A stretch of 64,000 bases of DNA from an uncultured delta proteobacterium (GTDB taxonomy: Bacteria; Myxococcota_A; UBA9160; UBA6930), in the NCBI GenBank assembly GCA_963722885.1, contig CAVROS010000001.1, positions 176,235 to 240,234 on the forward strand, read 5' to 3'. Each line of letters opens with the position of its first letter. Positions within the stretch are counted from its first letter, which is position 1. The notes below the pieces were generated by a model. That model saw only the letters and a list, made by a program, of their open reading frames with translations. It was not told where the DNA came from and ran no database searches. The translations under genes and the position numbers were made by a program. Shown here piece by piece: positions 18,380 to 57,238 of this stretch.

Positions 18380-18407
18380 GTATCGGCAAAAGCGGTGGAT
18401 TCCTAAG
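18380..18407 (-). promoter_or_regulatory. Candidate sigma28-like promoter for the Hsp70-J unit
   Basis: Minus strand CTTAGG-N14-GCCGATAC, about 50 nt before the start codon. Confidence 0.5.
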
Positions 18408-18449
18408 CAGTTTCCTGGCTCTCCCGCACGTGCTAACTGGTTCAGCGCG

Positions 18450-19196
18450 ATGTCCGGACATTCCAAGTGGTCGACGATCAAGCGTAAGAAGGGTGCCGCG
18501 GACGCCAAGCGCGGCAAGATCTTCACCAAGCTGATCCGCGAGATCGTTACGGCGGCCAAGATGGGGGGAGGGGACCCCGATGCGAACCCCCGTCTGCGGC
18601 TGGCCATCGACAAGGCCCGGTCCGGCAACATGCCCAAGGACAACATTCAGCGCGCGATCCAGAAGGGCATCGGTGGCGGAGAGGATGCCGCCTACGAGGA
18701 GGTGATCTACGAAGGCTATGGTCCCGGGGGGACCGCCGTGCTCCTCGAGGCCCTGACGGACAACCGGAAGCGGACGGTCAGCGAGGTCCGGCATGTCTTC
18801 GCCAAGAACGGGGGAAATCTCGGATCGACCGGCTGCGTGGCCTACCTCTTCGAAAAGAAGGGAATCGTCAGCGTCGCGCTGGAGGGGACGGATCTCGATG
18901 CGCTGATCGAGGTCGCTCTCGAGGCCGGGGCCCTCGACGTGCTGGAGAGCGACGACTCCCTGGAGGTGGTCGCCGCCCCCTCGGACTTCGACGCAGTGAA
19001 GGCAGCGCTGGTGGACGCGAGCTTCGCGGTGTCGTCCGCGGCGATCCGGATGGAGCCCGCCACTTCGGTGAAGCTCGAGGGCAAGGATGCCGAGTCGATG
19101 CTGCGGCTGGCCGACGCTCTGGAAGATCTGGACGACGTCCAGACGGTCCATGCGAATTTCGACATATCCGACGAGGCGATGGCGAATTTCGCCTGA
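18450..19196 (+). CDS. yebC: YebC/PmpR-family protein
   Basis: [33 protein letters not shown]; usual position before ruvC. Confidence 0.95.
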
Positions 19197-19258
19197 GATT
19201 CGCCTAAGATGAAGGCTGCCTCCCCCTCCGCCATGAACCCGTCCTCCGCGGGAGCGCG

Positions 19259-19811
19259 ATGCGCATCCTGGGAATCGATCCCGGCTCGAGCGTGACCGGC
19301 TACGGCGTCGTGGAGTGTGTGGACGCGAAGCTCGTCCACCTGACCCACGGGACCCTGCGCCCGCCGAAGAGCCAGGAGCTGCGCGCTTCGGCTCGCGGCG
19401 ATCCAGTCCGGTCTCGCCGAGGTGATCGAAGGTCACGCCCCCGATCTGGCAGTGGTGGAGCAGGTCTTCGTAGCGTCGAGCCCCCGCTCGGCGCTGATCC
19501 TCGGGCAGGCACGGGGCGCCGTCCTGGCCGCGGCTGGCGCGGCCGGACTCCCGGTGGAGGAGGTATCGGCTCGGGAGATCAAGCAGGCGGTGGTGGGGAC
19601 CGGAGCGGCGGCGAAATCACAGGTCCAGCTGATGGTGAAGCGAATCCTCCAGCTCGAACGCAAGCCACCGCAGGATGCGGCCGATGCCCTGGCAGCGGCG
19701 ATCTGCAGGGCCCACCGGGGCCGGCTCGCCGACCTGGCCCGGGGGGCACCTCGCCGGCGTTCCCGTGCCAGGCGGTCCGGCAGCGGCTTCGTGATGAGGC
19801 GCTCGCGATGA
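19259..19811 (+). CDS. ruvC: Holliday junction resolvase RuvC; apparent frameshift about 19385
   Basis: MRILGIDPG, then in another frame EQVF...LGQARG...KQAVVGTG...DAADALA. Confidence 0.9.
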
Positions 19812-20424
19812 TCGCGCGCCTCGAAGGCGTGCTGCTCGAGAAGACGCCGACTCGTGTTCTTCTCGGTGTGAACGGAGTCGGCTACGAGGCCCTGATTCCC
19901 CTTTCGACATTCACCCGCCTCCCCGACGAGGGCAAGACGGTCGTCCTGCGGATTCACACCCACGTGCGGGAGGATGCCTTCCAGCTCTACGGCTTCTTTA
20001 CCCAGCGCGAGCGGGAGGCCTTCGAGCTGGTGCTCCACGCCAGCCGGATCGGTCCCAAGCTCGCCCAGACCATTCTCTCCGGGATCGAGGCCGGGGCGCT
20101 GGTGGCCGCCATCCGCGAGCGGGACGCCGCGGCGCTGCGGGCGGTGCCCGGGATCGGAGCGAAGACCGCGGAGCGGATGCTGGTGGAGCTTCGCGACCGG
20201 GCAGAAGATCTGGCCGGAGTGAGCGCGGGCTTCCGTCTCGGGTCTGGCCACGAGTCCGAGCCATCCGCACGAAGCGAGACCCGACACCAGCTGGTCTCGG
20301 CCCTGCGCAACCTGCAGATTCCGAAGGCGAAGGCGGAGGAGGTCAGCGCCGAGGTGCTCGAGGAGCTCGGAGACGCGACGGCAATCGAGGATCTGGTGCG
20401 GACCGCGCTCCGGAGGTTGGCGAA

Positions 20425-20428
<4 letters not shown>
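19808..20428 (+). CDS. ruvA: Holliday junction branch-migration protein RuvA
   Basis: [33 protein letters not shown]. Confidence 0.95.
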
Positions 20429-21495
<1,067 letters not shown>

Positions 21496-21552
21496 AGGCC
21501 GGTCTTCCTCCTCTCCCGGTGCCGATTGTGGGTCAGATGGGTCCCGGTGAGG

Positions 21553-21581
21553 CTCAACGGAGATCCCCGGAACGCCGATAG
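21553..21581 (+). promoter_or_regulatory. Candidate sigma28-like promoter for the TPR kinase
   Basis: CTCAAC-N15-GCCGATAG, 55 nt before the ATG. Confidence 0.55.
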
Positions 21582-21636
21582 GGCTAGACGCCGGGGCTTC
21601 TCGCACTCGGCTGAGACAGGGAGTTCTGTCCCGCCC

Positions 21637-24414: not shown

Positions 24415-24512
24415 AGCTCCTTCTCTCCGAAGCCTGTGGAATCAGCAAAAAACTCGATTTCATAGGTGGTTAGAAGCCCGCGGTGAGACGGTCCATGGGG
24501 GGGAGACGGGCG

Positions 24513-25430
24513 GTGAATCAGCGTACGATTGCGGAAAAGATCTCGTGTACCGGGATCGGGCTCCACACCGGTGAGCCCGTTCAGCTGACTCTGTATCCAG
24601 CGCGTTCGGATTCGGGAATCGTCTTCGCGCGCACGGACCTGAGGCATCCGGTCGAGATTCCGGCGAAGCCCCGGTCCGTCGCGTCGACCTCGCACGCCAC
24701 CACGCTTGGCTGCGGCGACGCGACGGTCGGAACCGTCGAGCACCTGCTCGCCTCTCTCTACAGCCTGGGCATCGACAACGTCCGCGTCGAGGTCGACGGG
24801 CCCGAGATTCCGGTAATGGACGGCAGCTCCGCTTCCTTCGTCTTCCTGATCCGCGCCGCCGGTATCTTCGACCAGAGCTCCGAGCGCCGCCGGATGCGCA
24901 TTCGCAAGCCGATCGAGGTACGCGATGGCGAGCGGTCGATCCGCATCGATCCGGGTCGCTCGCTCCGGGTCAGCTACTCCGTCGATTACACCCATCCCGC
25001 CATCGGTCGCCAGACGCTCAATGGATTCACCCTGAGCGGAAAGAGCTTCGAGCGCGAGATCTGTCGGGCGCGCACCTTCGGCTTCCTTCACGAGGTCGAG
25101 GCCCTCTGGCGCAACGGCCTCGCCCGCGGCGGCAATCTCGACAACACGGTGGTGATGGACGAGCGCCGCGTGCTCAACCGTGACGGGCTCCGCTGGTCCG
25201 ACGAGTTCGTGCGGCACAAGGTTCTCGACCTGATCGGTGATCTCGCGCTGATCGGCATGCCCATCGAGGGCCATATCGTCGTCGAGCGCGGGGGGCACGC
25301 CCTTCATCAGCAGCTCGTCAGCGAGATCCTGAATACGCCCGAAGCCTGGAGGATCGAGGGTCCCGTGCCGCATGCCCGCGGCGCGTCGGACTTCCCTTCG
25401 CTACGGACGCCGGCCGAGGCTTCAGCCTAG
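24513..25430 (+). CDS. lpxC: UDP-3-O-acyl-N-acetylglucosamine deacetylase
   Basis: QRTI, GIGLHTG, TVEHLLA, DGSS, ARTFGF, HKVLDLIGDL, GGH. Confidence 0.97.
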   Translation: MNQRTIAEKISCTGIGLHTGEPVQLTLYPARSDSGIVFARTDLRHPVEIPAKPRSVASTSHATTLGCGDATVGTVEHLLASLYSLGIDNVRVEVDGPEIPVMDGSSASFVFLIRAAGIFDQSSERRRMRIRKPIEVRDGERSIRIDPGRSLRVSYSVDYTHPAIGRQTLNGFTLSGKSFEREICRARTFGFLHEVEALWRNGLARGGNLDNTVVMDERRVLNRDGLRWSDEFVRHKVLDLIGDLALIGMPIEGHIVVERGGHALHQQLVSEILNTPEAWRIEGPVPHARGASDFPSLRTPAEASA

Positions 25431-25777
25431 GCTGACCCGTCGAGATCGCGCGCCACGGTCGCGGCCGCCGCCGCGTCCAGAAACTCGATCCCCATTCCGG
25501 GCGCCCGAGTGGTGGGTGCTCCGGACCTGGCCTGCTGGTGCCAGGCGACGCGTCCCTCGATCTGGTGGACCCGGTCGGATTCCGGCAGCCGGAATCGAAC
25601 CCTGATCGGCGTGCCGATATCGATCGGCTCCTCCGTCTCGATGAACAGACCGCCGGCGCCGAGGGTCGTCGCGTACTCGTAGCGGATACCCGTACTGCCC
25701 TGGAAGTCGACGAGAACGCGGACCTTCCTGCGACGGAATCGGCGTTCCCGCCTTCGAGAGCGGAAGCTGGGGGACAT
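25427..25777 (-). CDS. Stand-alone PilZ-domain protein (TIGR02266-like)
   Basis: Arg-rich RxxxR N-terminus, TLGAGGLFI, GRVAW, PGMGIEF. Confidence 0.85.
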   Translation of the reverse strand: MSPSFRSRRRERRFRRRKVRVLVDFQGSTGIRYEYATTLGAGGLFIETEEPIDIGTPIRVRFRLPESDRVHQIEGRVAWHQQARSGAPTTRAPGMGIEFLDAAAAATVARDLDGSA

Positions 25778-25812
25778 CCGAGGCCTCCTCGCCGCTCAGG
25801 CTCTTCCGAGCC

Positions 25813-28800
25813 TCATAGCGCCTCGACCCACGCATTGATGACGCTTCGCAGCAGGGCGAGGGCTTCGGGGCGATCGGCGACGAGCTGGCTCACGTCCGCC
25901 TCGGGCGGGATCGCCTCGGCATTGTCGCCGCGACCGCCATCACCGGACTGGAGCCAGGCGGTGAGAGCGAGTCGGAACTCGAAATCGCTGGATTCCAGGA
26001 CGCGGGCGCTGGCCAGCCCGCGGAGCTCGGCGCGCCACGCCTCGAAATCGATCGACGCGATGGCCGCCGCGTCGATTTCTCCGAGGGCCTTGCGCACACG
26101 GCGCCTGGCGCGTCGGCCCAGGCTCGAGGAGAGGGCGTTCACCCGGTCGCCTTCGGCACCGACGCGAGGGACCTCCAGCACCAGCTGGGCGACGAGCGTG
26201 ATGACGGAGCCGAACTCGGGGGTGGACAGCGGCGCGAGCGCCGGTGCCGACAGCTCTCCCTCGGCGGCGAGCACTGCGGCGCGGAAGCCCGCCATCGGCC
26301 CCGAGGCCTCGCTCTCACTGCTCTCGGGTCTGCTTCCCGCGCCGAGGGCTTCACCGATCTCCTGGGCGGCTTCCTGCGCGATCCGACGCGCGGCCTCCCA
26401 TACCGGGTCGCTCATGGAGGGGGGGTTCGCGGGGGTTACGGGCGGCTGTGCGGGAGACTGGATCCGCTCTTCGGGCGTCGCAGCACCGAGGGCGCGCAGA
26501 ACGGCGAGCCCCGTCGCCACGCCCAGATCCGAACCGCGTCCGTGCGAGATGCGAAGCAGCGCTCGGATGGAGCCGAGTCGAATCGGCTCCTCCCGAAGCA
26601 GGTCGCGGTGTTGTTCGATCGCCTCGTTCCAGCACTCCGGACGGTGTGCCAGCAGCTCGGCGAGGGCGATTCGCGCATCGCGGAGCTCGGGATCGGCGGC
26701 GATGGCCCGACGGTAGGCAGCGACGGCGCCTTCCACGTCCTCGAGCGGGCCGGCCAGGAGCCGTCCCAGCTGGTGGAGGGCGGGTGCGATGTGCGGAGAT
26801 TCGGCGTCGGGATGCGCGTCCACGAAGCCGGTGAGCACATCGGCCGCTTCACGCCATTCACCGAGGCATCGCAAGAGACGCGCACCCGCCAGAGCGCCCT
26901 CCTGACAGGTGCTCTCGATCCGCGTGGCCTCGCGGTAGGAAGCGGCAGCCTCGCGCCGCTCCCCCTGCTTTTCCAGGGCTCGGGCGCGGATCAGGGCGAT
27001 TCCCGAGCGCTCGGGCACGTCTCCGATCGCGTCGAGAGCGCGTGTCGAGAGGTCGAGGGCCTCGGCGCTCCGCCCTCGGGACCAGAGCAGATCCGCCAGG
27101 AGCAGCCAGGCCCGGCGCGACCTGCGGGCATACCGCCGTGGCCTCGCGCAGCAGCACCTCGGCGGGCTCTTCGCGTCCCTCCCGTCCGATCTCCAGCTCG
27201 CCAGCGCGGACCAGGCGCTCGGCCCGCTCCTTGGCGTCGCTCGCCCGGGCTGCCCAGCCCTGGAGTGCGTTCACCGCCTCGTCGATCCGGGAGAGGCTCT
27301 CGTAGATCGCGACGAGACCGCCGTGTGCCTGGTCGAGGCCCGGATCCAGCTCGATCGCTTCGGTGTAGCGTTCCAGGGCGGCCTGAGGGTCGTCGGCCTC
27401 GAGGCTGGCCCCGAGCAGGCACAGGTGGCTGGCTCGGTCGGGGTCGGGAGTGTCGAGGCGGAGGCGTGCCTCCAGCGCCAGCCGGGCGCCCTCCCGGTCG
27501 CCGAGGTCGAAGAGGAGCTCGCCCCTCGCGGCAAGCGCCTCGGCGTGGAGCGGGGAGATCTCGAGGGCAGCGCCGTACAGGCGCGCCGCAGGCTCCAGGC
27601 ACTCCAGGGATCGTGCAGCCTGTCCGCCGATCAAGGCGGTCTCCAGGCGAGTTGCATCGTCGAGCTCCGCACCGCCGGCCGCCAGCTCGAGGGCGAGCTC
27701 GGCCGCCCGCTTCGCCTGGGCTCGTCTTCCCAGAGCGAAGGCGACCCGGGTGAGCATCGCCTCTGCCACCGCCAGAGCCGGATCGGCGGTGACGGCGCGT
27801 TCCAGTAGCGTCGCTGCCCACTCGGCATCGCTGGCTTCGATCAGCGTCGCCGCCCGGTAGCGACGCGTGGCAGACTCCCCTCCAGCCAGACAGTCGGCGG
27901 CCTTCTCCAGGGCTTCGGCAGCCGAGTGCGCCTCTCCGCGCGCCTCCCAGAGCCGCGCCGCCGTGTCCCAGGCATTCGCGTTCTCGGGCTCCGCGTCCAG
28001 AGCGCGCTGCACGCGCGCCAGGGCCTCGTCGGGCTGATCCAGCTCTTCGAGCGTTCGGGCCAGGAGCAGGTGGTCGCCACCGGACGCACCGGATTCGGGG
28101 TCATCGCACCAGCTCGCGAAGACCTCGGCGAAGCGATCGGGTCGATCCAGGCGTTGGTAGAGATCCGCCCACTCGCGACGGCTGTTCACGGGCAGCTCGC
28201 CGATCTCAGCGGCGGCCTGGTAGTCGCGGGTGGCTCGTTCGAGTTCGCCCGTATGGGTGCGGGCCAGCTCGCCGGCGCGAAGCCAGGCGGTCTTGCGGCG
28301 TTCCGGCTCGGCGTCGCCGAGGATCTCGACCTCACTCTCGTAGAGATCCAGCGCGCCGCGCCAGTCCTCCATCATCTCGAAGAGCGATTCGAGGGAGCGG
28401 AGCGAGACGAGATCGCTCGGCTCCGCCTCCAGAGCTGCAGCGAAGGCGCGGCTCGCCCTGGTCGTCGAGTCGAGCTGCTCCCAGGCGACCTGACCGAGTC
28501 GCCGGTAGAGTGCGGCCCGTTCCCGATTCGAGAGCGACTGCGCCTGCTCGAGCTCTGTTTCGAGGGTTCGCGCCACTTCCTCGTAGTCGCCGACCTGGTC
28601 GCTTGACGCCGCGCAGACCGCGGATCGCATCGAGATTCTGCGGATCTCGGGCGAGCACCTCACGGAAGGCGTCGGCCGCCTTGCAGGGTCGGTGAAGGCG
28701 TTCGCGGCGTAGCCGCGCCAGCTCGAGCCAGAGGTCCGCCTCCTCTCGTTGCACCTCGACCGTCTGGGGGCGCTCGTCGCCCTCTTCGCCGAGATCGAGC

Positions 28801-31800
28801 GCGGGTGCGCTCCGAGCCAGGCGTTGGCTCAGCCGTTGCTCGAGCTCGATGTCGTTTCGCCCGGCGCGGAGCAGGCTGAGCAGGGCTTTCTCGGCCTCTT
28901 CGAAGCGGCTCGGATCTTGGCCGTCTCCGGCCGCGATGCCGCCGTCCACGAGTTTGCGAAGGTGCCGGAGCGCGGCCTCTGGACGGCCGAGCTCAGCGTT
29001 GTAGACCCGGGCCAGCTCGAGCTGGAGCTCTCGCCTCCGCTCGTCGAACACCTCTGCCCCGGGGTCGAAGGAGGCGAGCTCCTCCTCCGCCGTGCGAGTC
29101 CAGAGATCCCTTCGTCCAAGCGACAGAAAGACCGAGCTCAGGCGGCCCAGTAGCTCGACCCGATCGACGCCGGAACTCGGTGCCTCGCACAGGGCTGCCC
29201 ACAGCTGGTCCGCGGCAGACGAGGGCTGGCCCAGGGCAACGGCGTAGAGCTCCGCTGCGGTGCGTCGCAGATCGAGGCGCTCTTCGGCGCTGGCCCCTTC
29301 GATCAGGAGCTCGAGGATTTCGGCCTGCTCTCGCGGGCGACGGGTATCGCGATAGAGCTGTTCGAGCCGTTCCAGCACGGCCCGGGACGCCGGGTCCGCG
29401 ACGCGGGCGGCTTCGAGGGCGGCGATCGCACGCCCCGGCGCACCCATCTGCTGCTCCAGGATGTCGGCCCGCTCGAGCTCGAGGGCACAGAGGCGGCCCG
29501 GATCCGGAGATAGCGCGATCTCGTCTTCCAGGGCGCGCAGCACCGCTTCCCGGCGGCCGGCCTGCCTGTGAACGTCGGCGATCCGGGCCACCACGGAAGC
29601 GTCCTCGCTGCGGAGGGCGCGGAGGCGTTCGAGCCAGGGGAGGGCGGCATCGCTGGTGAGATGGGTGGCGGCGATCTCGGCGGCCTCCGCGCAGATCGCG
29701 GCCTTGCCCGTTCTGGTCCTCGCCCGCCGCACAACGCAGCTCGAGCTCGAGGGATTCCAGCACCGCCGGCCAATCGCCCAGGCTTTCGAGAAGAGTCTCG
29801 AAGCTCGCTTCTCGCCTCGTCTGAGCTCGCGTCCAGTGCGATGGCGCTCCGGAAGGATTCCACCGCTTCCTCGGGGCGGGCGAGCTCGCCGGCCAGGATT
29901 CGGGCGCGCCGGGTCAGAAGCCGAGCGCGCTCGACGGGGCTTCGGGTCCTCTCGAGCGCGACCTCCAGCAGCTCGAGCCATTCGGCCGTTCGGCCCATCT
30001 GCTCGGCGAGCTGCATCGCCCGCCCGAGCGCCAGGACGTGGCCGGGTTCGATCTCGAGAACACGGCGAAGATGCCGCAGGGCGTCCCCGGGCCGGGAGAG
30101 CGAGCCCTCCAGCAGCGTCGCCAGCTCCATCCGGATCGGCACCTCCTCGGCGCCGCCGATCCGCGAGAGCTCGGCTTCGAGCAGTTGCACGAGGGGCTCG
30201 GTTTCTCCGAGGCGCCGGTAGATGTCCCGCAGTGCGCTCGGGGCGCCCCGGTCATCGGGTCGTTCCGCCAGCACCTGCCGGTACGACCCGGCGGCGGAGG
30301 CGAAGTCGCCACGCCTGCGCAGGGCGTCGCCCATCCGGAGGTACCAGTCGCTTCGCTCCAGGGCGTCCTCGCAGGCGACGGCTGCGCGTTCGCAGAGCTG
30401 GATCAGGTCGCCATCGCGACCCGCGCGCTGGTAGAGATCGGCCAACGGCTCGGCGACGACCGACAGGGCGTCGTCTTCCCCGGCCGTGGGCGCGAGCATC
30501 TCGATGGCTCCGTCCACGTCGTCCAGGGGGCCCGAGCGCAGAGCAGCGATACGGATCCGCAAGGAGATCTCTGGCCCGCGGCGGTCCAGCTCGCCCGAGT
30601 CGGCTCCGTCGGCTGTCTCCGGCTCGGATTGGAGAGCTGTGAGTCGCGTCTCGAGAACGCGGGCCAGGTCGGCGTGGCGTTCCTCGACGCTCAGCTGCTC
30701 GACCAGGAACTCGCTGGCCAGTGCGTGGGTCGGATCCAGGGAGAGGACCTTCTCGTAGTGGACAGCTGCCCGCGCCGGATCGGCGCAAGCTCCGACGCAG
30801 AGCTCCGCTGCCCTCGCGTGAAGGGCCAGGGCGCGCTCCGGGTCCGGCCCGGTCTCGAGCTCGGATTCCAGCGCAGTCAGGAGATCCTGGGGTCGGTCCT
30901 CCTCCTGGTAGAGCCGGGCCAGGGCTCTGCCAGACATCGGCGCGGTCGGCGCGCAGAGCAGCGGCGGCCTCCAGGTGCGCGATGGCGTCGTCGGGATCGA
31001 TCAGGCGATCGCGACACAGAGTTCCGAGCCGTTGTCGGATCTCGAAGTCGTCCTCGGGAGATCCGTGGCCGAGCTTCGCCACCAGGCGGTCGCGCGCGGT
31101 CTCCCACTCGCCGAGCCGCTCCAGGAGCGCGTCGAGCCGACGCTCGGCTTCCGCCGCCACCGCGGTTTCGCCGTCGGCGAGAGCGGTGAGCAGCTGCCTG
31201 GCTTCGTCCTCCCGGTGCAGCGTCTGTTCGAGAATCGTCGCCCGCTCGAGCTCCAGGGGCGCTCGGGCTTCGTCATCCTGCTCCTCGGCCGAGCGCGCCT
31301 CGAGCAATTCACAAAGACCCGCGAGATCGTTCGACTCGCGGAGCGCCCGCTCGAGGCTGGCGCGGATCCTCGGACACTCCGGCTCCCGCTCGTAGACCTC
31401 TCGGAACAGGGCCGCCGCCTGGGCGGGGAGACCCAGCCGATTCTGCAGGATCTCGGCGCGGCGCAGATCGAGATCGCGGGCCTCGGGGGACTGCGAGTCG
31501 AGCTCCCGGCGTCGCTCGCAAGAGCCGTTCGCTGAGCGCTTCGAAGCGCCCGGTTCGCTCCAGGAGGTTCTCGAGTCGCTCCCCCGAGTCCTGCGGAGCA
31601 TCGGGGGTTCGCGCCAGCTCCGCGAAGACGGGAATCGCCGACTCGGCGTCGTCGAGTCGGTCCGAGAGGATCACACCCAGGGCGTGGAGGCATTCGATGC
31701 GCTCTTCGGGAGAGACGAGCTCCGCCAGGTGGCGGCGCACCTCGACCGCCTCCCGCAGGCGCTCGCTGTCCTCCAGGAGAGGCTGCAGGGCGCGAAGACT

Positions 31801-33801
31801 CAGAAGATCGTCCGGGTCTGCTTCGAGAGCGCTCCGGTAGGCGTCGATGGCGGCTTCGACCTCGCCATCGGCGGCGCGCAGCTCCGCCAGGCGTCGGCGA
31901 TTCGCCGCCTGTTCCTCGCCCTGGAGCAGCCCGTCGAGGCGCTCCAGGGTCTCGCGCAGCTCGCTCGAGTGGTGCAGGACTTCCTGGAGCCGGGCGCAGG
32001 TCTGGAGTGCCTGCTGGTCCTCGGGCATCGCGACCACCAGGCGCTCGACCCAGAGCAGTGCCTCGTCGAGCTGATCCCGCTCCTCGAAGATTCGCGCCAG
32101 CTCCCAGACCAGGAAGGAGAGACGGCTTCGGTCGGTGGTGACGCTGGCCTCCCGCTCGAACGCCTCGACGATGGCGTCTTCGTCCCCGCTGTCCAGCGCG
32201 ATTCGCTCGATTCCCTGGAGGGCTGGCCGAGCGGTCGGATCGATGCCGATGGCCGCCTCGAAGGACCGGCGGGCCGCCTCGACGTCCTGGAACTGCTCGA
32301 GCATCAGCTCGCCGAGGGCGCAGTGAAGCTCGACCGAGCGCCTGCCCGTCGTCCTCTCGAGGCCGTTTTCCAGGTGCCTGCGAAGCTTCTCCCAGCTCTC
32401 CGTCTTGCGATAGAGCCGTTCCAGAGCGTCGACGATCAGCTTCTGTTCCGGATCCTCAGCGCTGGCGCGCTCGAAGGCGTCGATGGCGGCCTCGGTATCG
32501 GCCAGCTGCTCTTCGTGGAGGGAGCCGAGCCGGGCCAGGGCCAGGGCGCGACCGCTCGGGTCGCCTGCGGCCAGGGTGGCCTGCTGTTCGAGGATCTCCA
32601 CGAGCTCCTCGTCACGCCCGAGACGCGTGAGGTCGTCGGCGAGCTCGTGGAGCAGCTGGGCGTTTCCCGGATCATGCTCCAGAGCGCGGCGGAGCTCCGA
32701 CACGGCCTCGGAGCGATCTCCCTGCTCCCGCGAGAGCGTGGCGAGCTCGCGCAGGATCTCCGCTGGCATCGCGCCCTTGGCGAGATCGGATGCGCGTCGC
32801 AGGTGGTCGGTCAGGGCCTCCCGGTTTCCCGCGAGCCGCTCGACGTCCGCCAGCGCAAGGTGGTTCTCCGGATCGTCCGGGAAGAGCTCGAGGGCGCGGG
32901 AGAACCAGAGACGTGCGCCCTGGGGATTTCGCAATCGTTCCAGATGCAGGCGTCCCCCCTCATGGGCGATGGTGGCCCGTAGCTGCGCTCCCGAGGCCAG
33001 GTCGAAGCGCCTCTCGTAGAGCTCGGCGACCAGCTCCCATCGCTCATCCGCGGCGGCGCGTTCGAGCAAGGCTTCGAGGGCGATCTCGCAGCGGGGATCG
33101 TCGGTGAGGGCCTGGCGGAAGAGCTCCTCGGCGCCGTCCGCGTCTTCGAGAGGGCCGTCCTTGAGGCGGGCCAGCTGCACCACCGCGGGTGCGCGGTCCG
33201 GCCCCCGCAGGTGTTCGATGGCGCGCTCCAGCGCTCGCGCCGCAGCCGGCGCTTCACCCAGCTCCTCCCTGGCCTGCGCCAGACCGAGCAGGGCGGTCAC
33301 GTGATCCGGGTCGTTCTCGAGCGCTCGCTCGAACAGGGTCGCTCCCTGTGCCGCGTCGCCGAGCTTCAGGTGCCAGATCTCGCCCATCTCGGTCGAGAAG
33401 GCGGCCTGCTCGAAGGGGCGCATGGGCAGCTGAGCCTGAACCTCGGCGACCTGGAGGGCGAGCTCCCATTTCTCCTGCGCCGCGTAGATCTTTCGCAGCT
33501 GCACCAGCGCCGGCTGGAAGCCCGGGTCCAGACGAACGACGCTCTCGTAGGCCTCTGCCGCTCGGTCGACCTGCAGACAGCGCTCCTCGAGAACCTGGGC
33601 CAGCCGGAAGGCGACCCTCGCCCGCTTCTTGGGGCTCTTCTCCGGGTCCAGGTCGGGCGATCCGAGTCTGCGCTCGTACAGGGTGACGAGATCGTTCCAC
33701 TCGCCGTTCACGAAGTGATGCTCTTCGAGAGCCTCGAAGGCGGCGGCAACCGAAGGATCGGATTCGAATTGATTCTTCAGCCGCTGCAGATTGGCATCCA
33801 C
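25813..33801 (-). CDS. Giant TPR-repeat protein (about 2,660 aa), broken by about six apparent frameshifts
   Basis: Continuous TPR-like repeats (ALEADP, ALERLY, W..L...LE) pass between frames near 31520, 30925, 29795, 29705, 28610 and 27115; GTG start with a G-rich RBS. Confidence 0.8.
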
Positions 33802-33842: not shown

Positions 33843-33871
33843 CCATCGGCGCTTCGATCCGGCATCTTGAA
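33843..33871 (-). promoter_or_regulatory. Candidate sigma28-like promoter for the giant TPR-PilZ unit
   Basis: Minus strand TTCAAG-N15-GCCGATGG, 41 nt before the start. Confidence 0.6.
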
Positions 33872-39873: not shown

Positions 39874-39902
39874 TTGCAAACCCCCTGTAACTTGGATAGG
39901 TT
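39874..39902 (+). promoter_or_regulatory. Sigma70-type promoter of the rimP-nusA-infB operon
   Basis: TTGCAA-N17-TAGGTT. Confidence 0.6.
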
Positions 39903-39995: not shown

Positions 39996-40496
39996 GTGTA
40001 CCGGGACATCCCGGAAGAGATGCGGGCATTGATCGAGCCGATCGTCGATGACCACGGTCTCGAGTTGGTTGACGTCGACCTCAAGCGGGGCGGGGCGCCG
40101 TGGACGCTGCGTGTCATCGTGGACACGCCGGCGGGCGACGGACTCGTGCCCGTGGACGCGTGCGCACAGGTCTCTCGGGAAATCGGCAGCCACCTGGATG
40201 CCGGCGATCTGATCCCGGCCCGCTACACCCTGGAAGTCTCGTCGCCCGGGCTCGACCGGGTGCTGGCACGCGAGAAGGACTTCCGAGCGGCCTGTGGCCG
40301 TGAGGTGAAGCTCGAAACGCGTGCGCCCCGCGACGGGCGACGGCGTTTCCGGGGGCGCCTGGTCGGCTTCGACGACGAGGTGGCTCGTCTTCTTGTCGAT
40401 GGGGAAGAGGTCGAGATCGCCTTTGCCGACGTCGCCAGTGCGAACGCGGTTTACGAATTTACTCGCGAGGATTTCGCAAAGCGCGCAAGCCGCTAG
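39996..40496 (+). CDS. rimP: Ribosome maturation factor RimP
   Basis: YTLEVSSPGLDR; first gene of the nusA-infB operon. Confidence 0.95.
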   Translation: MYRDIPEEMRALIEPIVDDHGLELVDVDLKRGGAPWTLRVIVDTPAGDGLVPVDACAQVSREIGSHLDAGDLIPARYTLEVSSPGLDRVLAREKDFRAACGREVKLETRAPRDGRRRFRGRLVGFDDEVARLLVDGEEVEIAFADVASANAVYEFTREDFAKRASR

Positions 40497-50334: not shown

Positions 50335-51861
50335 ATGAGCCGAAGCCATTCACGATCGTCATCGAGGCAGGTGGAAGCACTGCGCGATCTGGCTCGCGAG
50401 CTAGACGGGGATCGGATCAAGGACGAGTGCGGAGTATTCGGCATCCACGGGCACCCCGAGGCCGCGAAGATTGTCTACCTGGGCCTCTACGCGCTCCAGC
50501 ACCGGGGGCAGGAGAGCGCCGGCATCTGCTCCACTCAGGGTGGTGAGCACACCGTTCACCGCGCCATGGGTCTCGTCTCGGACGTGTTCAACGAGAGGAA
50601 TCTCGCCAAGCTTCCCGGCCGTCACGCGATCGGCCACGTTCGCTATTCCACCTCCGGGGGGAGTCTGCTCCGAAACGCCCAGCCCTTCTGCGCGAACACG
50701 GACGCTGGCCCCGTCGGCCTCGCCCACAACGGAAACCTGGTGAACGCCGGGGCGGTCCGCAGAGAGCTCGAAGGCCGCGGAGCGATCTTCAGCACCAGCT
50801 GCGACAGCGAGGTGATGGTGCACCTGCTGGCGCGCTCCCGGGAGGCGAGTCTGGAGGAGCGACTGATCGATGCGCTCTCCCGGGTGAAGGGCGGCTTCGC
50901 CGTGGTCATGCTCAGTCACGACTCCCTGGTCGCGGCGCGCGATCCGAACGGCTTTCGGCCCCTGGTACTGGGCCGCCTCGACGGGGCCTGGGTGGTCGCG
51001 AGCGAGACCTGCGCCCTGGATCTGATCGGCGGCAGGGTCGAGCGGCATCTGGATCCCGGCGAGGTGGTGGTGATCCGGCGCGGACGGCTGCGCTCGCTGC
51101 GTCCCTTCCCGAAGCCCGAGCGGGAATCGTTCTGCATCTTCGAGTACATCTACTTCGCGCGGCCCGATTCGAATCTTCCGGGCGGGAACGTCTACGCCTT
51201 TCGCAAGGACCTCGGCCGCGCGCTCGCCCGGGAGCATCCGGTCGAAGCGGACATGGTGGTGCCGTTGCTCGACTCCGGAAGCCCGGCGGCGCTGGGCTTC
51301 GCGGAGGAATCGGGGATTCCCTTCGAGACGGCCATCATTCGCAACCACTTCGTCGGGCGTACCTTCATCGAGCCGACCCAGTCGATTCGCGACTTCGGTG
51401 TGAAGATCAAGCACAATGCCGTGCGCGGGATTCTCGGTGGCAAGCGGGTGGTGCTGGTGGACGACTCGATCGTGCGCGGAACCACCTTGCTGAAGATCTC
51501 GGGCATGATTCGCAACGCCGGTGCGCGGGAGGTCCACATTCGCATCTCGGCTCCACCGACGATTGGATCCTGCCACTACGGCATCGACATGCCCACCCGC
51601 AGCGAACTCATCGCCTATCGCCTTTCGGTCGAGGAAATCCGCGAGAGCATCGGAGCCGATTCCCTCGGCTATCTCTCCCTGGAAGGGCTCCATAGGGTCT
51701 CCGAGCAGCTCAAACACGGTCATTGCGATGCCTGCTTCTCGGCTGACTACCCGGTGCGGATCGATCCGGCGCAGTCTGCGCCCCAGCTCTCCCTCTTCCA
51801 CCTGGTCGGCGAGCACGACGACGAGGAGACCGAGGTGGACGGAACGGTGCCGGACGCGTGA
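50335..51861 (+). CDS. purF: Amidophosphoribosyltransferase (propeptide, Fe-S type)
   Basis: ECGVFG, QHRGQE, GHVRYST, HNGNL, VDDSIVRGTT, CDACF. Confidence 0.97.
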   Translation: MSRSHSRSSSRQVEALRDLARELDGDRIKDECGVFGIHGHPEAAKIVYLGLYALQHRGQESAGICSTQGGEHTVHRAMGLVSDVFNERNLAKLPGRHAIGHVRYSTSGGSLLRNAQPFCANTDAGPVGLAHNGNLVNAGAVRRELEGRGAIFSTSCDSEVMVHLLARSREASLEERLIDALSRVKGGFAVVMLSHDSLVAARDPNGFRPLVLGRLDGAWVVASETCALDLIGGRVERHLDPGEVVVIRRGRLRSLRPFPKPERESFCIFEYIYFARPDSNLPGGNVYAFRKDLGRALAREHPVEADMVVPLLDSGSPAALGFAEESGIPFETAIIRNHFVGRTFIEPTQSIRDFGVKIKHNAVRGILGGKRVVLVDDSIVRGTTLLKISGMIRNAGAREVHIRISAPPTIGSCHYGIDMPTRSELIAYRLSVEEIRESIGADSLGYLSLEGLHRVSEQLKHGHCDACFSADYPVRIDPAQSAPQLSLFHLVGEHDDEETEVDGTVPDA

Positions 51862-53262
51862 CCGGCGTCGGATCCTCCGATCTGGGTCGGCTCGATCTCA
51901 CGGCTCTCGAAGAGCGGGTGGCGGCGGGGGAGATCGACACCGTCATCACCGCCATTCCGGATCTCTACGGGCGGCTGGTCGGCAAGCGCAACACCGGGCG
52001 CTTCTTCCTCGAGGAGGTGGCTCGGAAGGGAATGCACGTCTGTGACTATCTTCTGGCCTGCGACATGGAGATGGATCCGACGCCCGGGTACGCCTTCACG
52101 AGCTGGGAGACCGGCTACGGCGACCTGCACGGCATTCCCGACCTCTCGACTCTTCGCGAGGCCTCCTGGCTCGATCGCACGGCGATCGTGATCTGTGACG
52201 CACGACGCGACGACCCGGTGGGTCTCGTCTCCGTCGCGCCGCGCTCGATCCTGATCCGCCAGCTCGAGCGCGCCGCCTCTCTGGGCTTCGTTGCCAAGAT
52301 GGGGAGTGAGCTCGAGTTCTTCCTGTTCCGGGACGGCTTCGAAGGGGCCCGGGCCAAGGGCTATCGCGATCTCGCGACGACGCAGTCGTACGTCGAGGAT
52401 TACCACGTTCTCTCCGGCACTTTCGTCGAGTCGGTGATCGGGGAGATTCGCCGGCAGATGGACGCCTCTGGCATCCCAGTGGAGTTCAGCAAGGGCGAAT
52501 GGGGCCCGGGCCAGCACGAGATCAACCTCTGCTACGCGCCGGCTCTCGAGATGGCCGATCGCCACGTGATCTACAAGCTCGGGGCGAAGGAGATCGCGCA
52601 TCGGGCGGGATGTGCACTCACCTTCATGGCCAAGTGGGACGAGCGGCTGGCGGGAAACAGCCTTCACGTGCACAGCAGCCTGTGGAGCGAGAAGGACGAG
52701 CCGCTCTTTGGCGGGGAGCCGCCGCCCCTTGCCGGCAGCCCGGTTTGCGCGTCCGACACGTTTCGCTGGTATCTCGGGGGCCTCCTGGCCCACGCCCGTG
52801 AGCTCGCCTGGTTCTTCGCACCGACGGTGAACTCCTACAAGCGCTACCGCCCGGGCACCTTCGCCCCCACGGCGATCGGCTGGAGCTACGACAACCGCAC
52901 CGCGGGGTTCCGGGTCGTGGGCAGCGGTCCGTCGCTTCGCGTCGAGTGTCGCATTCCCGGTGCCGACGCGAATCCCTACCTGGTCTACGCCGCGCTTCTG
53001 TCCGCAGGGCTCGACGGCATCGAGCAGAAGCTCGATCCAGGGCCGGTCTTCGAGGGCGACCTCTACAAGGCAGAGGAGCTGCCGCAGGTGCCCCATTCCC
53101 TCCCGGAGGCGATCGCGGAGCTCGAGCGCAGCGAGTTCGCCCGCCAGCAGTTTCGGTGATGAGGTGATCGACCACCTGCTCCACTTCGCCCGGACCGAGC
53201 AGGCCTGCTTCGAATCGGCGGTGACGGACTTCGAGCGCGAACGCTACTTCGAGCGGGTTTGA
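51858..53262 (+). CDS. Glutamine synthetase-like gamma-glutamyl-amine ligase (GlnA4/PuuA-like); apparent frameshift about 53150
   Basis: YLLACDMEM...SWETGYGD, ELEFFLF, EWGPGQHE, HVHSSL, NSYKRY, DNRT, ECRIPGADANPY. Confidence 0.85.
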
Positions 53263-53977
53263 TGGGTCGACCGCTCGTTGGTGTCACCACCTATCACCGG
53301 GAGATCGAGGAGCGCCCGCGCTTCTATCTTCCCGAGCGCCTACGTGGATGCGGTCCGTGTCGGGGGAGGGATCCCGGTACTGCTCACGCCCGGAGAGGAA
53401 CGTCCGGCCGAGCTGCTCGAGAGCCTGGACGCGCTGGTCTTCTCGGGGGGTGGCGACCTGGACCCGGTGCATTTCGGGGGAGACGACTCACCCGCGCTCC
53501 TACTTCATCTGCGAGGAGCGCGACGCCTTCGAGCTGCAGCTGATACGCGCCGCCCTGGAAAGGGAGACTCCAGTGCTCGCCATCTGCAGGGGAGTCCAGG
53601 TGCTGAACGTCGCGCTGGGTGGCAGCCTCCATTCCGATCTCGAGGACGTGGTCGGTGACGCGGTCCCTCACCGCGAGAGCCAGACCTGCCACACCTATCA
53701 CGCGGTCAAGCTCGAACCCGACTCCCGGCTTGCCGCCCTGATGGGCGCGACGGAGCTCGCCGAGGTCGCATCCTGGCACCACCAGGCGGTCGATCGGCTC
53801 GGTGCGGGCCTGCGGGCCGTCGCCTGGGCGCCCGACGGGACGGTAGAGGCTCTGGAGCTTTCCGAGGCCCCCCAGCTCCTGGCCATCCAGTGGCACCCCG
53901 AGCTCCAGATCGAGCCGGGATCGCTTCACCGCAGGCTCTTCGAGGCGATCGTCCGAATGGCGAAGGAGAGGCCCTGA
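53262..53977 (+). CDS. Gamma-glutamyl-gamma-aminobutyrate hydrolase-like (peptidase C26, PuuD-like); two apparent frameshifts
   Basis: RPLVG, SGGGDLDP, RDAFE, AICRGVQ, SWHHQAV, QWHPE across three frames. Confidence 0.85.
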
Positions 53978-54030
53978 TTCCCCGCGGGGCAAGGCGTTTC
54001 ATTTTTGGCTGAACAACTTTCAGCAGAATC

Positions 54031-54059
54031 GTCAGGCGGATCGGGGGTGCCACCGATAA
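54031..54059 (+). promoter_or_regulatory. Candidate sigma28-like promoter for the PilZ-DUF4388 gene
   Basis: GTCAGG-N15-ACCGATAA, 70 nt before the ATG. Confidence 0.55.
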
Positions 54060-54129
54060 GCGGGTCAGGAGGAAGCCGAGATCCCCCGGGACGATTTTCT
54101 GTTCCGGAATGGCTCGCTGTGTACCCAGA

Positions 54130-55506
54130 ATGGCCCGTCGTCTACGCCTTCCGTTTGCAGACGCCGCCGAATTCCGAGAGGAATACGAGCGGAACATCGT
54201 CAATGGGGGTGCCTTCATCCGCACCGCCGAGGAGTTCGAGGTGCGCGAGCTGGTCGAGGTCGAGCTCGAGCTCGGCTTCTGCGGCGACTCGGTCGTTCTG
54301 GAGGCGGAGATCGTTCACTTCGTCCGGGCGGAGCAGGCCGACTCGGAGGCTGCCGTCGGTGTCGCGGTCCAGTTCCTCGAGCCTGCGCCACTGCTGCGCG
54401 ATACGCTGCAGCGCTTCATCGACGAGAATTCGTCCGCTGAAACGGACGTCGCCGAGCTCGCGGACGAGGATCCCCCTGGCCACGACGACGTCACGTCCAT
54501 CGAGCTCGAGGAATTGCCCGAGGAATTGTCCGAGGAAGGCCACCTCGAAGAGGTGAGCGAGGCGCCCGTCTTCGATCCCTCCGAGGTGGACCTTCCCCAG
54601 AGTCGCGAGGAGGAAGATCCCCTCGCAGCGGCGCTGGATCGGCGCAAGGCGCCCCGGGTTCGGACCCGGGTCCAGGCCCGGGTGGATGCCAAGAGCATGT
54701 CGCTGGAAGGTCACACGCGGGACCTGAGCCGGACCGGAGCCCTGATCTCGGCCGATGCAAGCGATCTGCCGATCGGGAAAGCCGTAAAGCTGGAGCTCGT
54801 CCATCCCGTCACTGGCGAGGAGCTCGAGGTCGAGGGCGCGGTCTCCCGCCACGTCGAGACAGAGGGCACTGTGGCTGCAGTGGGGATCGAGTTCGGTCCG
54901 GAGACCAGCGATGAAGGAGTCGCTGCGTTCGTGGAGGACGCGAGTCAGGCGGAGACGGAGCGGCAGCGCGCCGGGATCTACGGCGCGATCGAGGAACTCG
55001 GGATGGCCGCTCTGCTGCGGATGTTCGCCTTGAACGCGAGGCGGGGAACGCTGACGTTCATCTCGGGCGTCGAGGACGGCTCGATTGGCTTCGAGAACGG
55101 AATCTTGCGGCACGTGCAGCTGGGCGAGGTGCGCGGGGTAAAGGCGCTCTCGCGGTTTCTCTCCTGGGATCAGGGAAACTTCGAGTTCCACGCCCGGCTC
55201 GATCCCACGGATGCCGAGCCGCTGGCCGTCGCTGTCGAGGAGGCGATCCAGGAGGCGATTCGTCAGCGCGAAGAAATGATCCGGGCCGAGCTCACCGACA
55301 TGCTGGACCCCGCTGCCTGTTTCGCGATCGACGGGGAAGCGCTTCGTGGCGAGAACGGTCTCAGCAAGACCGAAGAAGCCGTGCTGGATCTGGTGGCTGC
55401 GCGCTTCAGCGTCCGTCGCATCCTGGACGTGATCCCGCAGCCCGACGCCGAGGTGATCGAGGCGCTGAAGACCCTCCTGGATGGGGAGATCATCCGGCCC
55501 GTCTGA
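54130..55506 (+). CDS. Tandem PilZ plus DUF4388-like protein
   Basis: First PilZ NIVNGGAFI...GVAVQF; second has RRKAPR and DLSRTG; C-terminal GAIEELGMAALL...RRGTL...WDQGNFEF. Confidence 0.8.
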   Translation: MARRLRLPFADAAEFREEYERNIVNGGAFIRTAEEFEVRELVEVELELGFCGDSVVLEAEIVHFVRAEQADSEAAVGVAVQFLEPAPLLRDTLQRFIDENSSAETDVAELADEDPPGHDDVTSIELEELPEELSEEGHLEEVSEAPVFDPSEVDLPQSREEEDPLAAALDRRKAPRVRTRVQARVDAKSMSLEGHTRDLSRTGALISADASDLPIGKAVKLELVHPVTGEELEVEGAVSRHVETEGTVAAVGIEFGPETSDEGVAAFVEDASQAETERQRAGIYGAIEELGMAALLRMFALNARRGTLTFISGVEDGSIGFENGILRHVQLGEVRGVKALSRFLSWDQGNFEFHARLDPTDAEPLAVAVEEAIQEAIRQREEMIRAELTDMLDPAACFAIDGEALRGENGLSKTEEAVLDLVAARFSVRRILDVIPQPDAEVIEALKTLLDGEIIRPV

Positions 55507-55541
55507 CGGTGGCTCGCCTCCGCCTCGCTGCGCTTGCCTTG

Positions 55542-57156
55542 CTAGAGCCGTCGGACGACGGTGTCCTCGAGGAAGTTCTCGTCGTCGCGTTCGGGGTAGT
55601 CGAGGGTGTAGTGGAGGCCGCGGCTCTCCTTGCGGCGCGAGGCGCACTCGATCACCAGCTCGGCGATGGTGACGAGATTGCGCAGCTCGATCAGGTCCGG
55701 GGTGACCCGGAAGTCCCAGTAGTACTGGTTGATCTCTTCCTTGAGCAGGACGATCCGCCGCCGCGCGCGGGTGAGACGCTTGTTGGTGCGTACGATACCC
55801 ACGTAGTTCCACATCAGGCGCCGGATCTCGTCCCAGTTCTGGGTGATCACCACCGCCTCGGAGCTCTCGGTGGCACTTCCCTCCATCCAGGGCTCCACCG
55901 GGACGTCGCCGAGGGGCAGATCGGGGAACCTGCGGATCGCCTCCTCTGCCGCCGCCTGGGCGAAGACCACGCCTTCCAGCAACGAGTTCGAGGCCAGCCG
56001 GTTCGCGCCGTGAAGCCCGGTACAGGTCACCTCGCCAGCGGCGAACAGGTTCTCGACCTCGGTTTCACCGTGGAGATCCGTCACCACCCCGCCGCAGCAG
56101 TAGTGAGCCGCCGGAACCACCGGAATCGGCTGCCGGGTCATGTCGATTCCGAACTCCAGACAGGCGTCGTGGATGTTCGGGAAGCGCTCGCGCAGGTACT
56201 CCGCATCGCGGTGGGTGATGTCCAGAAACGCCGAGTCGTTGCCGCTGCGCTTCAGTTCGTCGTCGATGGCGCGCGCCACGATGTCGCGGGGAGCGAGGTC
56301 CTTCATGGGGTGGTGATGCTCCATGAAGGCGTCGCCCGCCTCGTTGCGCAGAACGGCGCCCTCTCCCCGGAGCGCCTCACTGATCAGGTAGGACTTCGCC
56401 TGGGGGTGGTACAGGCAGGTGGGGTGGAACTGGAAGAACTCCATGTTCCCAAGCGCAGCGCCGGCCCGGTAGGCCATCGCCATGCCGTCTCCCGTCGCGA
56501 TGTCGGGATTGCTGGTATAGAGGTAGACCTTGCCCGCACCTCCCGTGGCGAGGAACGTGGCACGCGCGCGGTAGCGCTCCACATTCCCGGTCTTCGCGTC
56601 GAGCACATAGGCGCCGAGAGCGCGGTTCGGACCCGGCAACCCTGCGCGGTGGGTGGTCAGCAGATCGATGGCGCAGTGGTCTTCGAGCAAGGTGATGCTC
56701 GGATGCGCGCGGGCCCGGGCCAGCAGCGCCCGCTCGATCTCCCGCCCCGTGGCATCCCTGTGGTGAAGGACCCGGCGCACGGTGTGGCCACCCTCACGCC
56801 CGAGCTCGTACATCAGCGTTGCCCTGGCTGTCGTCGTTGCCCTCTCGATCGAACTCGACGCCCAGCTTTCCCAGAGCTTCGATGGCGGCGCCGCCTCGCT
56901 CCACCACGAAGCGCACCACGTTCTCACGGCAGATGCCGGCGCCGGCAGTCATGGTGTCCTGGGTGTGCGACTCGAAGGAATCCTCATCGGAGACCACTGC
57001 CGCGATGCCACCCTGGGCGAAGTTCGTCGCCGACTGGACGGCCTCCTTCTTGGTGACCACCGTGACTCGCCCGTGTTCGGCGACGCGGAGGGCGTAGAAG
57101 AGGCCGGCGACGCCGCTGCCCAGTACCAGAAAGTCGGAATCGTTGTTTTGTGACAT
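55542..57156 (-). CDS. nadB: L-aspartate oxidase; apparent frameshift about 56815
   Basis: GSGVAG, AQGGIAAV, REGGH, QFHPT, LAPRDIVAR, GLHGANRLASNSL, ESRGLH. Confidence 0.95.
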
Positions 57157-57209
57157 TGGTTCCCCCTGGGGCATATACGACTGGAGGAGTCTCGTGGTGA
57201 CGCATCCAC

Positions 57210-57238
57210 CTAAGGCGGCGGTCCTGGCGTTCCGATAA
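57210..57238 (+). promoter_or_regulatory. Candidate sigma28-like promoter for the lytic transglycosylase unit
   Basis: CTAAGG-N15-TCCGATAA, 92 nt before the start. Confidence 0.55.

Follow-up and report, generated by a model that had tools for sequence, protein, structure and literature searches.

Sigma-28-type promoter sites and a predicted c-di-GMP-centred regulon in an uncultured order of sediment Myxococcota

Introduction

Sigma-28 belongs to textbook flagellar biology. In the 64,000-nucleotide (nt) stretch of genomic DNA considered here (hereafter the window; G000:C1:176235-240234, where G000 is the assembly that carries it), sites resembling sigma-28-type promoters stand before five scattered genes, encoding an Hsp70 chaperone, a tetratricopeptide-repeat (TPR) Ser/Thr protein kinase, a giant TPR protein with a PilZ domain, a PilZ-DUF4388 protein, and a lytic transglycosylase with an SLT domain. 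The assembly (6.3 Mb, 43 contigs, ~67% G+C, 90% completeness, 5.3% contamination) represents an order of uncultured Myxococcota from marine sediment. The locus thus raises three questions: whether the five sites form one promoter class, which factor reads it, and which programme it serves.

The reading preferred here, to which we assign a probability of roughly 0.78, is that the five sites belong to one promoter class read by the single FliA/WhiG-family sigma factor of G000, and that the regulon is non-flagellar and dominated by cyclic di-GMP (c-di-GMP) signalling. The re-use of sigma-28 has been worked out mainly for WhiG in Streptomyces and, by prediction, across Actinomycetota; the present case appears independently in another phylum.

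Specificity of the Motif in the Window and the Genome

The preliminary description of the window placed a degenerate bipartite pattern upstream of five transcription units, on the strand of the genes. The regular expression (regex) of this pattern matches at exactly these five places (Table 1) and at one more, which lies inside an open reading frame (ORF), was not listed in that description, and is probably a chance match. As had been stated, four of the five sites share identical spacing (N15), with N14 at Hsp70, and the five gene products are those named, as judged by Pfam and direct reading. Every site shares the orientation of the gene that it precedes and is located 43-94 nt 5' of the likely start codon. 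In 100 dinucleotide shuffles of the window, the fixed N15 pattern is expected 0.43 times (sd 0.70, largest 3) vs 5 matches found, and none of the 100 shuffles reached 5. This statistic alone is weak because the pattern was built post hoc from the same five sites; it is the genome-wide and cross-genome tests that make the observation solid.

For the genome-wide tests, the upstream class comprised sites 5' of a gene on the same strand, and other intergenic DNA, genic sense, and genic antisense sequences served as controls. When CCGATA alone was used as an unbiased anchor, 125 copies lay up to 200 nt 5' of a gene on its strand, and a subset of these displayed T..AAG at positions -21..-17 (T 38%, A 33%, A 41%, G 50%), a signal lacking from the CCGATA copies of the three control classes. 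The N15 regex of the preliminary description matched 35 upstream sites vs 7 in other intergenic DNA, 14 in genic sense, and 6 in genic antisense, so the motif is not equally frequent on the wrong strand. At N14, the respective counts were 14, 6, 14, and 26, and the spacings 12, 13, 16, 17, and 18 yielded just 0-3 upstream sites.

An iterated two-block position weight matrix (PWM) converged on the consensus cTCAAGt-N15-gCCGAT(A/G). In the window, no site reaches 16 bits except four of the five, the strongest being that of the giant TPR-PilZ gene. Genome-wide, sites of at least 16 bits number 86 upstream, 21 in other intergenic DNA, 50 in genic sense, and 13 in genic antisense, corresponding to 116 per Mb upstream vs 12.5, 9.8, and 2.5 per Mb in the controls. 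At 18 bits or above, the densities are 59 per Mb upstream vs 4.8, 2.4, and 0. The 86 upstream sites have a spacing of 15 in 72 cases, 14 in 13, and 16 in one, and the median distance from site to start codon is 42 nt. Altogether, the motif precedes ~2% of the genes of G000, and the promoter class comprises roughly 90-130 promoters. This small share, together with the strong skew to PilZ, DUF4388, and GGDEF genes, sets the motif apart from a housekeeping promoter.

The housekeeping units had been said to display sigma-70-like promoters instead (TTG...-N17-TA...T). This pattern occurs only 7 times in the whole window, both strands included, and two of the matches stand before rrn (TTGACG-N17-TAAGTT at 1475-1503) and before the gene at 39996 (TTGCAA-N17-TAGGTT at 39874-39902). 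A stricter promoter scan of 1400-1800 retrieved no such site.

Conservation across the Order

Orthologues of the five genes were sought in 45-60 genomes sampled from the order, spanning 12 families, at protein identities of 37-86%; two loci that were truncated or devoid of the N-terminus were left out. A site of at least 13 bits lies upstream on the gene strand in 113 of the 143 orthologue loci, across 12 families (the counts for each gene are given in Table 1). The reverse strand of the same upstream stretches yielded 0/143, and equal stretches inside genes 3/143. Conservation upstream of the orthologues of all five genes, named as a check in the preliminary description, is thus borne out, and the promoter class is kept throughout the order.

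Among the orthologues, neither the flanks nor the spacer can be aligned, yet the TCAAG-like and CCGAT blocks remain in register. Each gene retains its own flavour of the motif: Hsp70 orthologues mostly carry gCTCAGG-N14-GCCGATA at the same place, giant TPR orthologues mostly TCAAG-N15-GTCGATG, kinase orthologues CTCAAC or CTCAAA, and PilZ-DUF4388 orthologues keep GCCGATA 20-45 nt 5' of the start. Contrary to what had been supposed, the genes themselves are not specific to the lineage of G000: they are present in most of the sampled genomes of the order, and in several families the five units reside in one syntenic block of ~45-55 kb (G022:C4, G013:C56, G032:C82, G012:C1). Taken together with the genome-wide specificity and the presence of the sigma gene, this conservation supports the proposal of one co-regulated programme.

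One member of the same family, G035 (2.2 Mb, 91% complete), contains no exact-pattern match, and neither a FliA match nor FlhA was found in it; orthologues of the five genes were likewise not found. This looks like a reduced genome that has lost the whole programme jointly.

The Sigma Factor and Its Locus

The sigma-28-family gene sought as a counterpart of the motif does exist. The gene at C4:328905-329582 is the only one in G000 matching TIGR02479 above the cut-off (278.2 vs 189.6 bits). Its best matches among solved structures are the WhiG proteins of the RsiG-WhiG complexes 6PFV and 6PFJ (245.6 and 241.8 bits), followed by E. coli FliA (6PMI, 196.3 bits), and its region-4.2 helix is nearly identical in alignment to that of WhiG. 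Hence, the designation of the class as sigma28/FliA-like is correct as to the FliA/WhiG family, but the sigma is nearer to WhiG than to proteobacterial FliA. More than 560 relatives were detected in public genomes; the best 80 of them are 68-87% identical and all come from metagenome bins, mostly labelled Myxococcota, Myxococcales, or Deltaproteobacteria.

The sigma gene (L009:9837-10808) has genes for NtrC-type sigma-54 activators on one side and a convergent PP2C phosphatase gene on the other. Two motif sites flank it, one before the PP2C gene and one before an NtrC-type activator gene. In the 45 relatives with full flanks, the sites recur ~2 kb 5' of the sigma gene and ~1.6 kb downstream of the start of that gene, and the PP2C site scores at least 14.3 bits in 41/45 of them amid diverged sequence. 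Since one flanking activator and the PP2C phosphatase are themselves targets, feedback on the sigma is suggested. Autoregulation of the sigma gene is not claimed: the 19.6-bit site that the NtrC-type gene preceding fliA carries at its 3' end is kept in only 5-7/45 relatives.

A sigma-54-type element, TGGCATgacccCTGCT, is found before the sigma-28 gene (L009 9707-9722), with TGGCAT-N5-CTGCT 127 nt 5' of its ATG. The strict sigma-54 regex matches before the sigma gene in 17/46 loci, with no match on the reverse strand or inside the gene. Two NtrC-type activator genes, one of them with a motif site, are located upstream (L009 6410-9377). The sigma gene is therefore probably sigma-54 dependent, and the arrangement suggests a sigma-54 to sigma-28 cascade.

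On the other side of the PP2C promoter, a divergent motif site (L009 11574-11605, +) precedes a receiver-domain protein (11694-13309, +), which is split over frames, bears a long Pro-rich, acidic tail, and may be similar to polarity regulators like Myxococcus RomR.

Predicted Content of the Regulon

Pfam was run on 58 of the 60 top-scoring targets, the other two being the already known giant TPR and PP2C genes. PilZ was met in 7 of them, GGDEF and/or EAL in 4, DUF4388 in 3, and DUF6982 in 2, along with further response regulators and a histidine kinase; 22 had no Pfam family. Single representatives include a methyl-accepting chemotaxis protein (MCP), a PilT-like T2SSE ATPase, a pilin-like N-methyl protein, a Wzy_C protein, MreB, Lon, a subtilase, an FHA protein, an NtrC-type activator, TetR, HTH_3, and glycogen phosphorylase.

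The skew is evident also from the side of the gene families. A site of at least 14 bits stands before 15/30 PilZ genes of G000 (a count including two identical copies and one site just 12 nt from the domain), 7/12 DUF4388 genes, and 5/8 GGDEF genes (4/8 at 15 bits), vs 16/548 (2.9%) random genes. DUF4388 is the PATAN domain; for cyanobacterial PATAN proteins, an action on the motor of type IV pili is reported (10.1101/2021.06.11.447907).

The regulon is thus predicted to be non-flagellar and dominated by PilZ receptors, DUF4388/PATAN proteins, and GGDEF/EAL enzymes. It is also predicted to take in genes of type IV pili and surface behaviour (PilT-like ATPase, pilin-like protein, MCP, Wzy-like protein, MreB, lytic transglycosylase) as well as regulators, chaperones, and proteases (Ser/Thr kinase, PP2C, NtrC-type activator, Hsp70-DnaJ, Lon).

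Two of the PilZ genes, G000:C35:4727-5029 and G000:C34:131703-132005, possess identical upstream motif sites on different contigs, representing either a recent duplication or redundant contigs.

Relation to the Flagellum

Genes for flagellin (Flagellin_N), FlhA, and rod/hook proteins (Flg_bbr_C) were not found in G000; as the assembly is 90% complete, their absence is likely but not proven. The sigma gene does not reside in a flagellar cluster of the flhA-flhF-flhG-fliA type, and in the kin G041 and G012 a distance of 0.4-2.5 Mb separates it from flhA. Of the 151 sampled Myxococcota genomes, 53 have FlhA above the cut-off, so that flagellar genes are widespread in the phylum, and 86 have a FliA/WhiG-family gene above the cut-off. 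Within the order, the sigma is present in 22/24 sampled genomes (only 17 of 31 candidates were scored in G047, one of the two misses) and an FlhA match in only 9/24; in 13/24, the sigma is kept with no FlhA found.

Flagellin genes of the flagellated kin appear to be served by another system. Most of them have sigma-54 promoters (TGGCA(C/T)-N5-TTGCA-like) 90-190 nt before the gene (loci L300-L316); 9 of the 14 flagellin loci examined match the sigma-54 regex, and in a tenth the match is truncated by the end of the sequence displayed. In G041, three genes bordering the flagellar cluster (fliD, fliS, flgE) are preceded by motif sites (L326 3479-3843 and 3692-5305; L327 2022-2748). They encode a 102-aa protein whose N-terminus is rod-protein-like, a GGDEF protein, and a DUF5610 protein. 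The motif thus retains a loose connection with the flagellar locus in this genome; no relative of these three genes was found in G000. By Pfam, the 102-aa protein is not FlgM.

Comparison with Known Sigma-28 Systems

The consensus of flagellar sigma-28 is TAAA-N15-GCCGATAA. With FliA/sigma-28 of E. coli and Salmonella and SigD of Bacillus, the present system shares the protein family (TIGR02479), the -10 element GCCGATA(A), and the spacing. Unlike in these systems, G000 yielded no match for flagellin, FlhA, FlgM, or the rod/hook genes, the sigma gene is outside a flagellar cluster, the -35 element is TCAAG and not TAAAG, and the flagellins of flagellated kin are on sigma-54-type promoters.

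The likeness to WhiG is closer. The WhiG/FliA consensus used on actinobacterial genomes by Denis et al. 2026 comprises a -35 element XT(C/A)AX, a spacer of 16, and a -10 element GCCGA (PMC13595943); in this notation, the motif described here reads CTCAA, 16 nt, GCCGA, i.e., the geometry is identical. As in the Streptomyces WhiG and the WhiG1/WhiG2 regulons, a sigma-28-family factor is re-used for non-flagellar programmes, and the predicted targets of WhiG in Actinomycetota likewise include c-di-GMP metabolism, type IV pili, chemotaxis, and regulators (Gallagher et al. 2020, PMC7005675; PMC13595943). The differences, besides the phylum, are that the skew here favours the receptors of c-di-GMP (PilZ, PATAN) no less than the enzymes, that the sigma gene has a sigma-54-like promoter and is surrounded by genes for NtrC-type activators, and that an RsiG-type signature was not found by an exact-motif search.

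The residues contacting c-di-GMP in WhiG differ as well. Lys57, Gly61, and Arg62 of S. venezuelae WhiG align with Arg32, Ser36, and Arg37 of the sigma considered here, and any side chain at WhiG position 61 would clash (PMC7005675). The set of contacting residues that marks the WhiG2 type is thus not kept in full. Overall, the system does not possess the defining features of either flagellar FliA or the RsiG-controlled WhiG2 type.

In other bacteria, sigma-28 has also been separated from the flagellum. The sigma-28 of Chlamydia is one case in which the factor serves non-flagellar genes or persists where there is no flagellum. The same general theme recurs in non-flagellated Legionella species, which keep FliA (PMC5655016), and in Bdellovibrio, where FliA-type promoters stand at attack-phase genes (PMC5430801). 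In none of the three is sigma-28 known to drive about half of the PilZ genes of a genome. No report linking FliA/sigma-28 to Myxococcota was found in the literature searched, subscription journals being outside its coverage.

Which Factor Reads the Motif

Several points weigh against the assignment of the motif to the FliA/WhiG-family sigma of G000. The link between the motif and the gene at C4:328905-329582 is inferred from the family consensus and from sequence likeness. In G000, the score of the Hsp70 site is just 9.2 bits. A degree of circularity affects the PWM counts, as the matrix was trained on the same upstream class that was later counted; the CCGATA anchor, regex spacing, and orthologue conservation tests are free of this circularity. 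The gene calls came from a simple, crude codon-usage model (81% of the genome coding), and the assembly contains frameshifts. In the five flagellated members of the order (G012, G021, G039, G041, G045), only 2/20 flagellin loci have the motif at 13 bits or above. A phylum-wide count of TMAAG-N16-CCGATR is higher in the class of the window (median 4.1 per Mb, n=26) than elsewhere; outside this class, the medians with (1.25-2.33 per Mb) and without (1.45 per Mb) a FliA-family gene do not differ (p = 0.86). Matches in coding sequences dominate this count, which is too coarse to connect motif and sigma. Finally, in four metatranscriptomic RNA runs, short contigs of 90-99% likeness cover parts of the PilZ-DUF4388, SLT, and neighbouring genes; they are gene fragments containing no transcription starts, so nothing follows from them about promoters.

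In view of these points, the rival to be taken most seriously, if still an improbable one, is that the motif represents a real promoter class read by another alternative sigma, e.g., an RpoH-like, another group-3, or an extracytoplasmic function (ECF) factor. G000 does encode five further sigma-70-family proteins (other group-3 sigmas) scoring 72-121 bits with TIGR02479; the Hsp70-DnaJ pair and Lon among the targets recall heat-shock regulons, and the flagellins of the kin, as stated, mostly go without the motif. At the same time, the RpoH and ECF consensus sequences differ from GCCGAT(A) and T(C/A)AA, the DNA-reading regions of the FliA/WhiG homologue are close to those of WhiG, and the strongest conserved sites flank the gene of this very homologue. 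A family with no FliA match (12 sampled genomes) speaks to the same point: it contains only general Hsp70 paralogues (45-54% identity) and no orthologue that could be examined for the motif, and these paralogues were used as a negative control, of which just 1/12 has a site of at least 13 bits. Moreover, GCCGAT(A) as the -10 element with a 16-nt spacer behind T(C/A)AA is the published hallmark of FliA/SigD/WhiG (PMC13595943).

It is considerably less plausible that the motif is a binding site of an activator or repressor. Dimeric regulators also have bipartite sites of fixed spacing, but the two halves are unlike each other here and strictly oriented to the gene, as the empty reverse strand of the orthologue loci attests; the spacing is nearly always 15 or 14 nt, the sites lie at a short median distance from the start codons, and the motif equals a known sigma consensus (PMC13595943). 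A chance or compositional pattern chosen post hoc, which the derivation of the degenerate pattern from the five sites and the intragenic sixth match might evoke, is practically ruled out by the shuffles, by the genome-wide specificity of spacing, strand, and position, including the regex spacing test, and by the retention of the motif amid diverged flanks across 12 families.

Control of the Sigma and a Possible Mechanism

If the motif is indeed read by the FliA/WhiG-family sigma and by no other, region 4.2 of the protein would bind T(C/A)AA and regions 2.4 and 3 would bind GCCGA, with transcription starting a few nt downstream of CCGAT. The neighbouring NtrC-type activator would switch on the sigma gene from its sigma-54-type promoter, and the programme would govern a surface-motility, adhesion, or developmental state; the motile, predatory, or developmental state put forward in the preliminary description may be seen as a proposal of the same kind.

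The partner restraining the sigma is a separate matter. FlgM (PF04316), which had been named as a gene to look for, gave no match in G000 at E ≤0.001 among 10 candidates scored. The RsiG motif E(X)3S(X)2R(X)3Q(X)3D gave four exact matches in six-frame ORFs, only one of them in a coding frame (a 719-aa protein); divergent motifs were not searched. As neither FlgM nor RsiG was found, the system points to some other way of controlling a sigma-28 factor. A partner-switching module was considered as a regulator, and nothing links the one at C36 to the sigma. This module is complete (GAF-SpoIIE phosphatase, RsbW-like kinase, and STAS protein at G000:C36:98038-100157; L320 5539-7658); it has no sigma gene beside it and lies between two motif sites that rank among the strongest in G000.

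A broader picture can be proposed only tentatively, at somewhat less than even odds. The WhiG-like sigma-28 would be the master switch of an order-wide c-di-GMP receptor network (half of the PilZ/PATAN proteins and half of the diguanylate cyclases) and of type IV pilus and surface behaviour, uncoupled from the flagellum, whose flagellins are on sigma-54, and kept where the flagellum was lost. It would operate below a sigma-54/NtrC cascade and be restrained by an anti-sigma factor other than FlgM and RsiG, which might be one of its own small PilZ targets or a Ser/Thr-phosphorylation or partner-switching module.

The value of the system lies in a testable regulatory map for an uncultured but widespread sediment lineage (~100 promoters, one sigma, and a candidate sigma-54 cascade upstream), with a predicted regulon centred on c-di-GMP receptors and a sigma retained in genomes where FlhA was not found. 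It also offers a comparative system for studying how a sigma regulon is rewired upon the loss of the flagellum.

Features of the Window and Minor Observations

Table 1. Candidate promoter sites of the window, the genes behind them, and the conservation of the sites at orthologue loci
Feature	Position	Strand	Description	Orthologue loci with a site of at least 13 bits
Sigma-28-type promoter (Hsp70)	18381..18406	-	cTTAGG-N14-GCCGATA, 52 nt 5' of Hsp70 ATG 18329; only spacing-14 site of the five	
Specialised Hsp70 paralogue	16304..18329	-	ATG 18329; two ORFs (18329-17274, 17413-16304) through frameshift	22/29
DnaJ-domain gene	16297-15779	-	Behind Hsp70; Pfam DnaJ	
Sigma-28-type promoter (kinase)	21554..21580	+	gCTCAAC-N15-GCCGATA, 57 nt 5' of ATG 21638; PWM 17.8 bits	
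Membrane-anchored TPR-Ser/Thr protein kinase, ~860 aa	21638..24218	+	Pfam TPR, Pkinase	24/28
Sigma-28-type promoter (giant TPR)	33844..33870	-	gTTCAAG-N15-GCCGATG, 43 nt 5' of GTG 33801; PWM 21.0 bits	
Giant TPR protein with C-terminal PilZ	25427..33801	-	Several ORFs; Pfam TPR; PilZ match at 25469-25744	28/29
Sigma-28-type promoter (PilZ-DUF4388)	54032..54058	+	cGTCAGG-N15-ACCGATA, 51-72 nt 5' of start; PWM 16.2 bits	
PilZ-PilZ-DUF4388 (PATAN) protein	54109..55506	+	Start 54109 or 54130; Pfam PilZ (two stretches), DUF4388	14/28
Sigma-28-type promoter (SLT)	57211..57237	+	cCTAAGG-N15-TCCGATA, 94 nt 5' of start; PWM 16.6 bits	
Lytic transglycosylase, DUF4124 + SLT	57331..57936	+	Pfam	25/29
Sixth pattern match	10007..10033	-	Inside ORF, genic sense; PWM 13.4 bits	

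Three of the five genes (Hsp70, kinase, and giant TPR-PilZ) are split by frameshifts in G000. The kinase gene extends over three frames, its coding potential shifting at ~21800 and ~22740. In relatives, the same genes are intact single frames of ~650-700, ~870-910, and ~2630-2875 aa, respectively, and for this reason the three breaks are most likely assembly indels. ORF-based annotation of G000 will therefore under-call and fragment genes. The PilZ-PilZ-DUF4388 protein is predicted to be a c-di-GMP receptor.

The two ORFs of the Hsp70 gene cover positions 1-250 and 303-553 of Pfam HSP70, and the orthologues are 75-86% identical, over residues 1-255 only. The promoter site occupies the divergent gap between hsp70 and yebC. 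The 603-aa ORF on the plus strand (17385-19196) is an artefact, which fooled the codon-usage gene caller: its first half is hsp70 antisense (Pfam NAD-GH) and its second half the real yebC/TACO1, which starts at ATG 18451. Immediately behind the Hsp70-DnaJ pair, a gene at 13661-15775 (-) encodes a 704-aa protein combining peroxiredoxin (AhpC/TSA, Redoxin) and multihaem cytochrome c parts; it may share the Hsp70-DnaJ transcript.

The stretch 53000-58500 of the window is present in marine-sediment DNA runs of several studies, with small shares in five RNA runs. In the upstream regions of G000 genes, a strong strand asymmetry is seen for Shine-Dalgarno words and also for the hexamers CTACGA, TCTACG, GACTAC, and ACTACG (e.g., 212 vs 96); these hexamers may belong to a further promoter class or may result from wrongly called starts.

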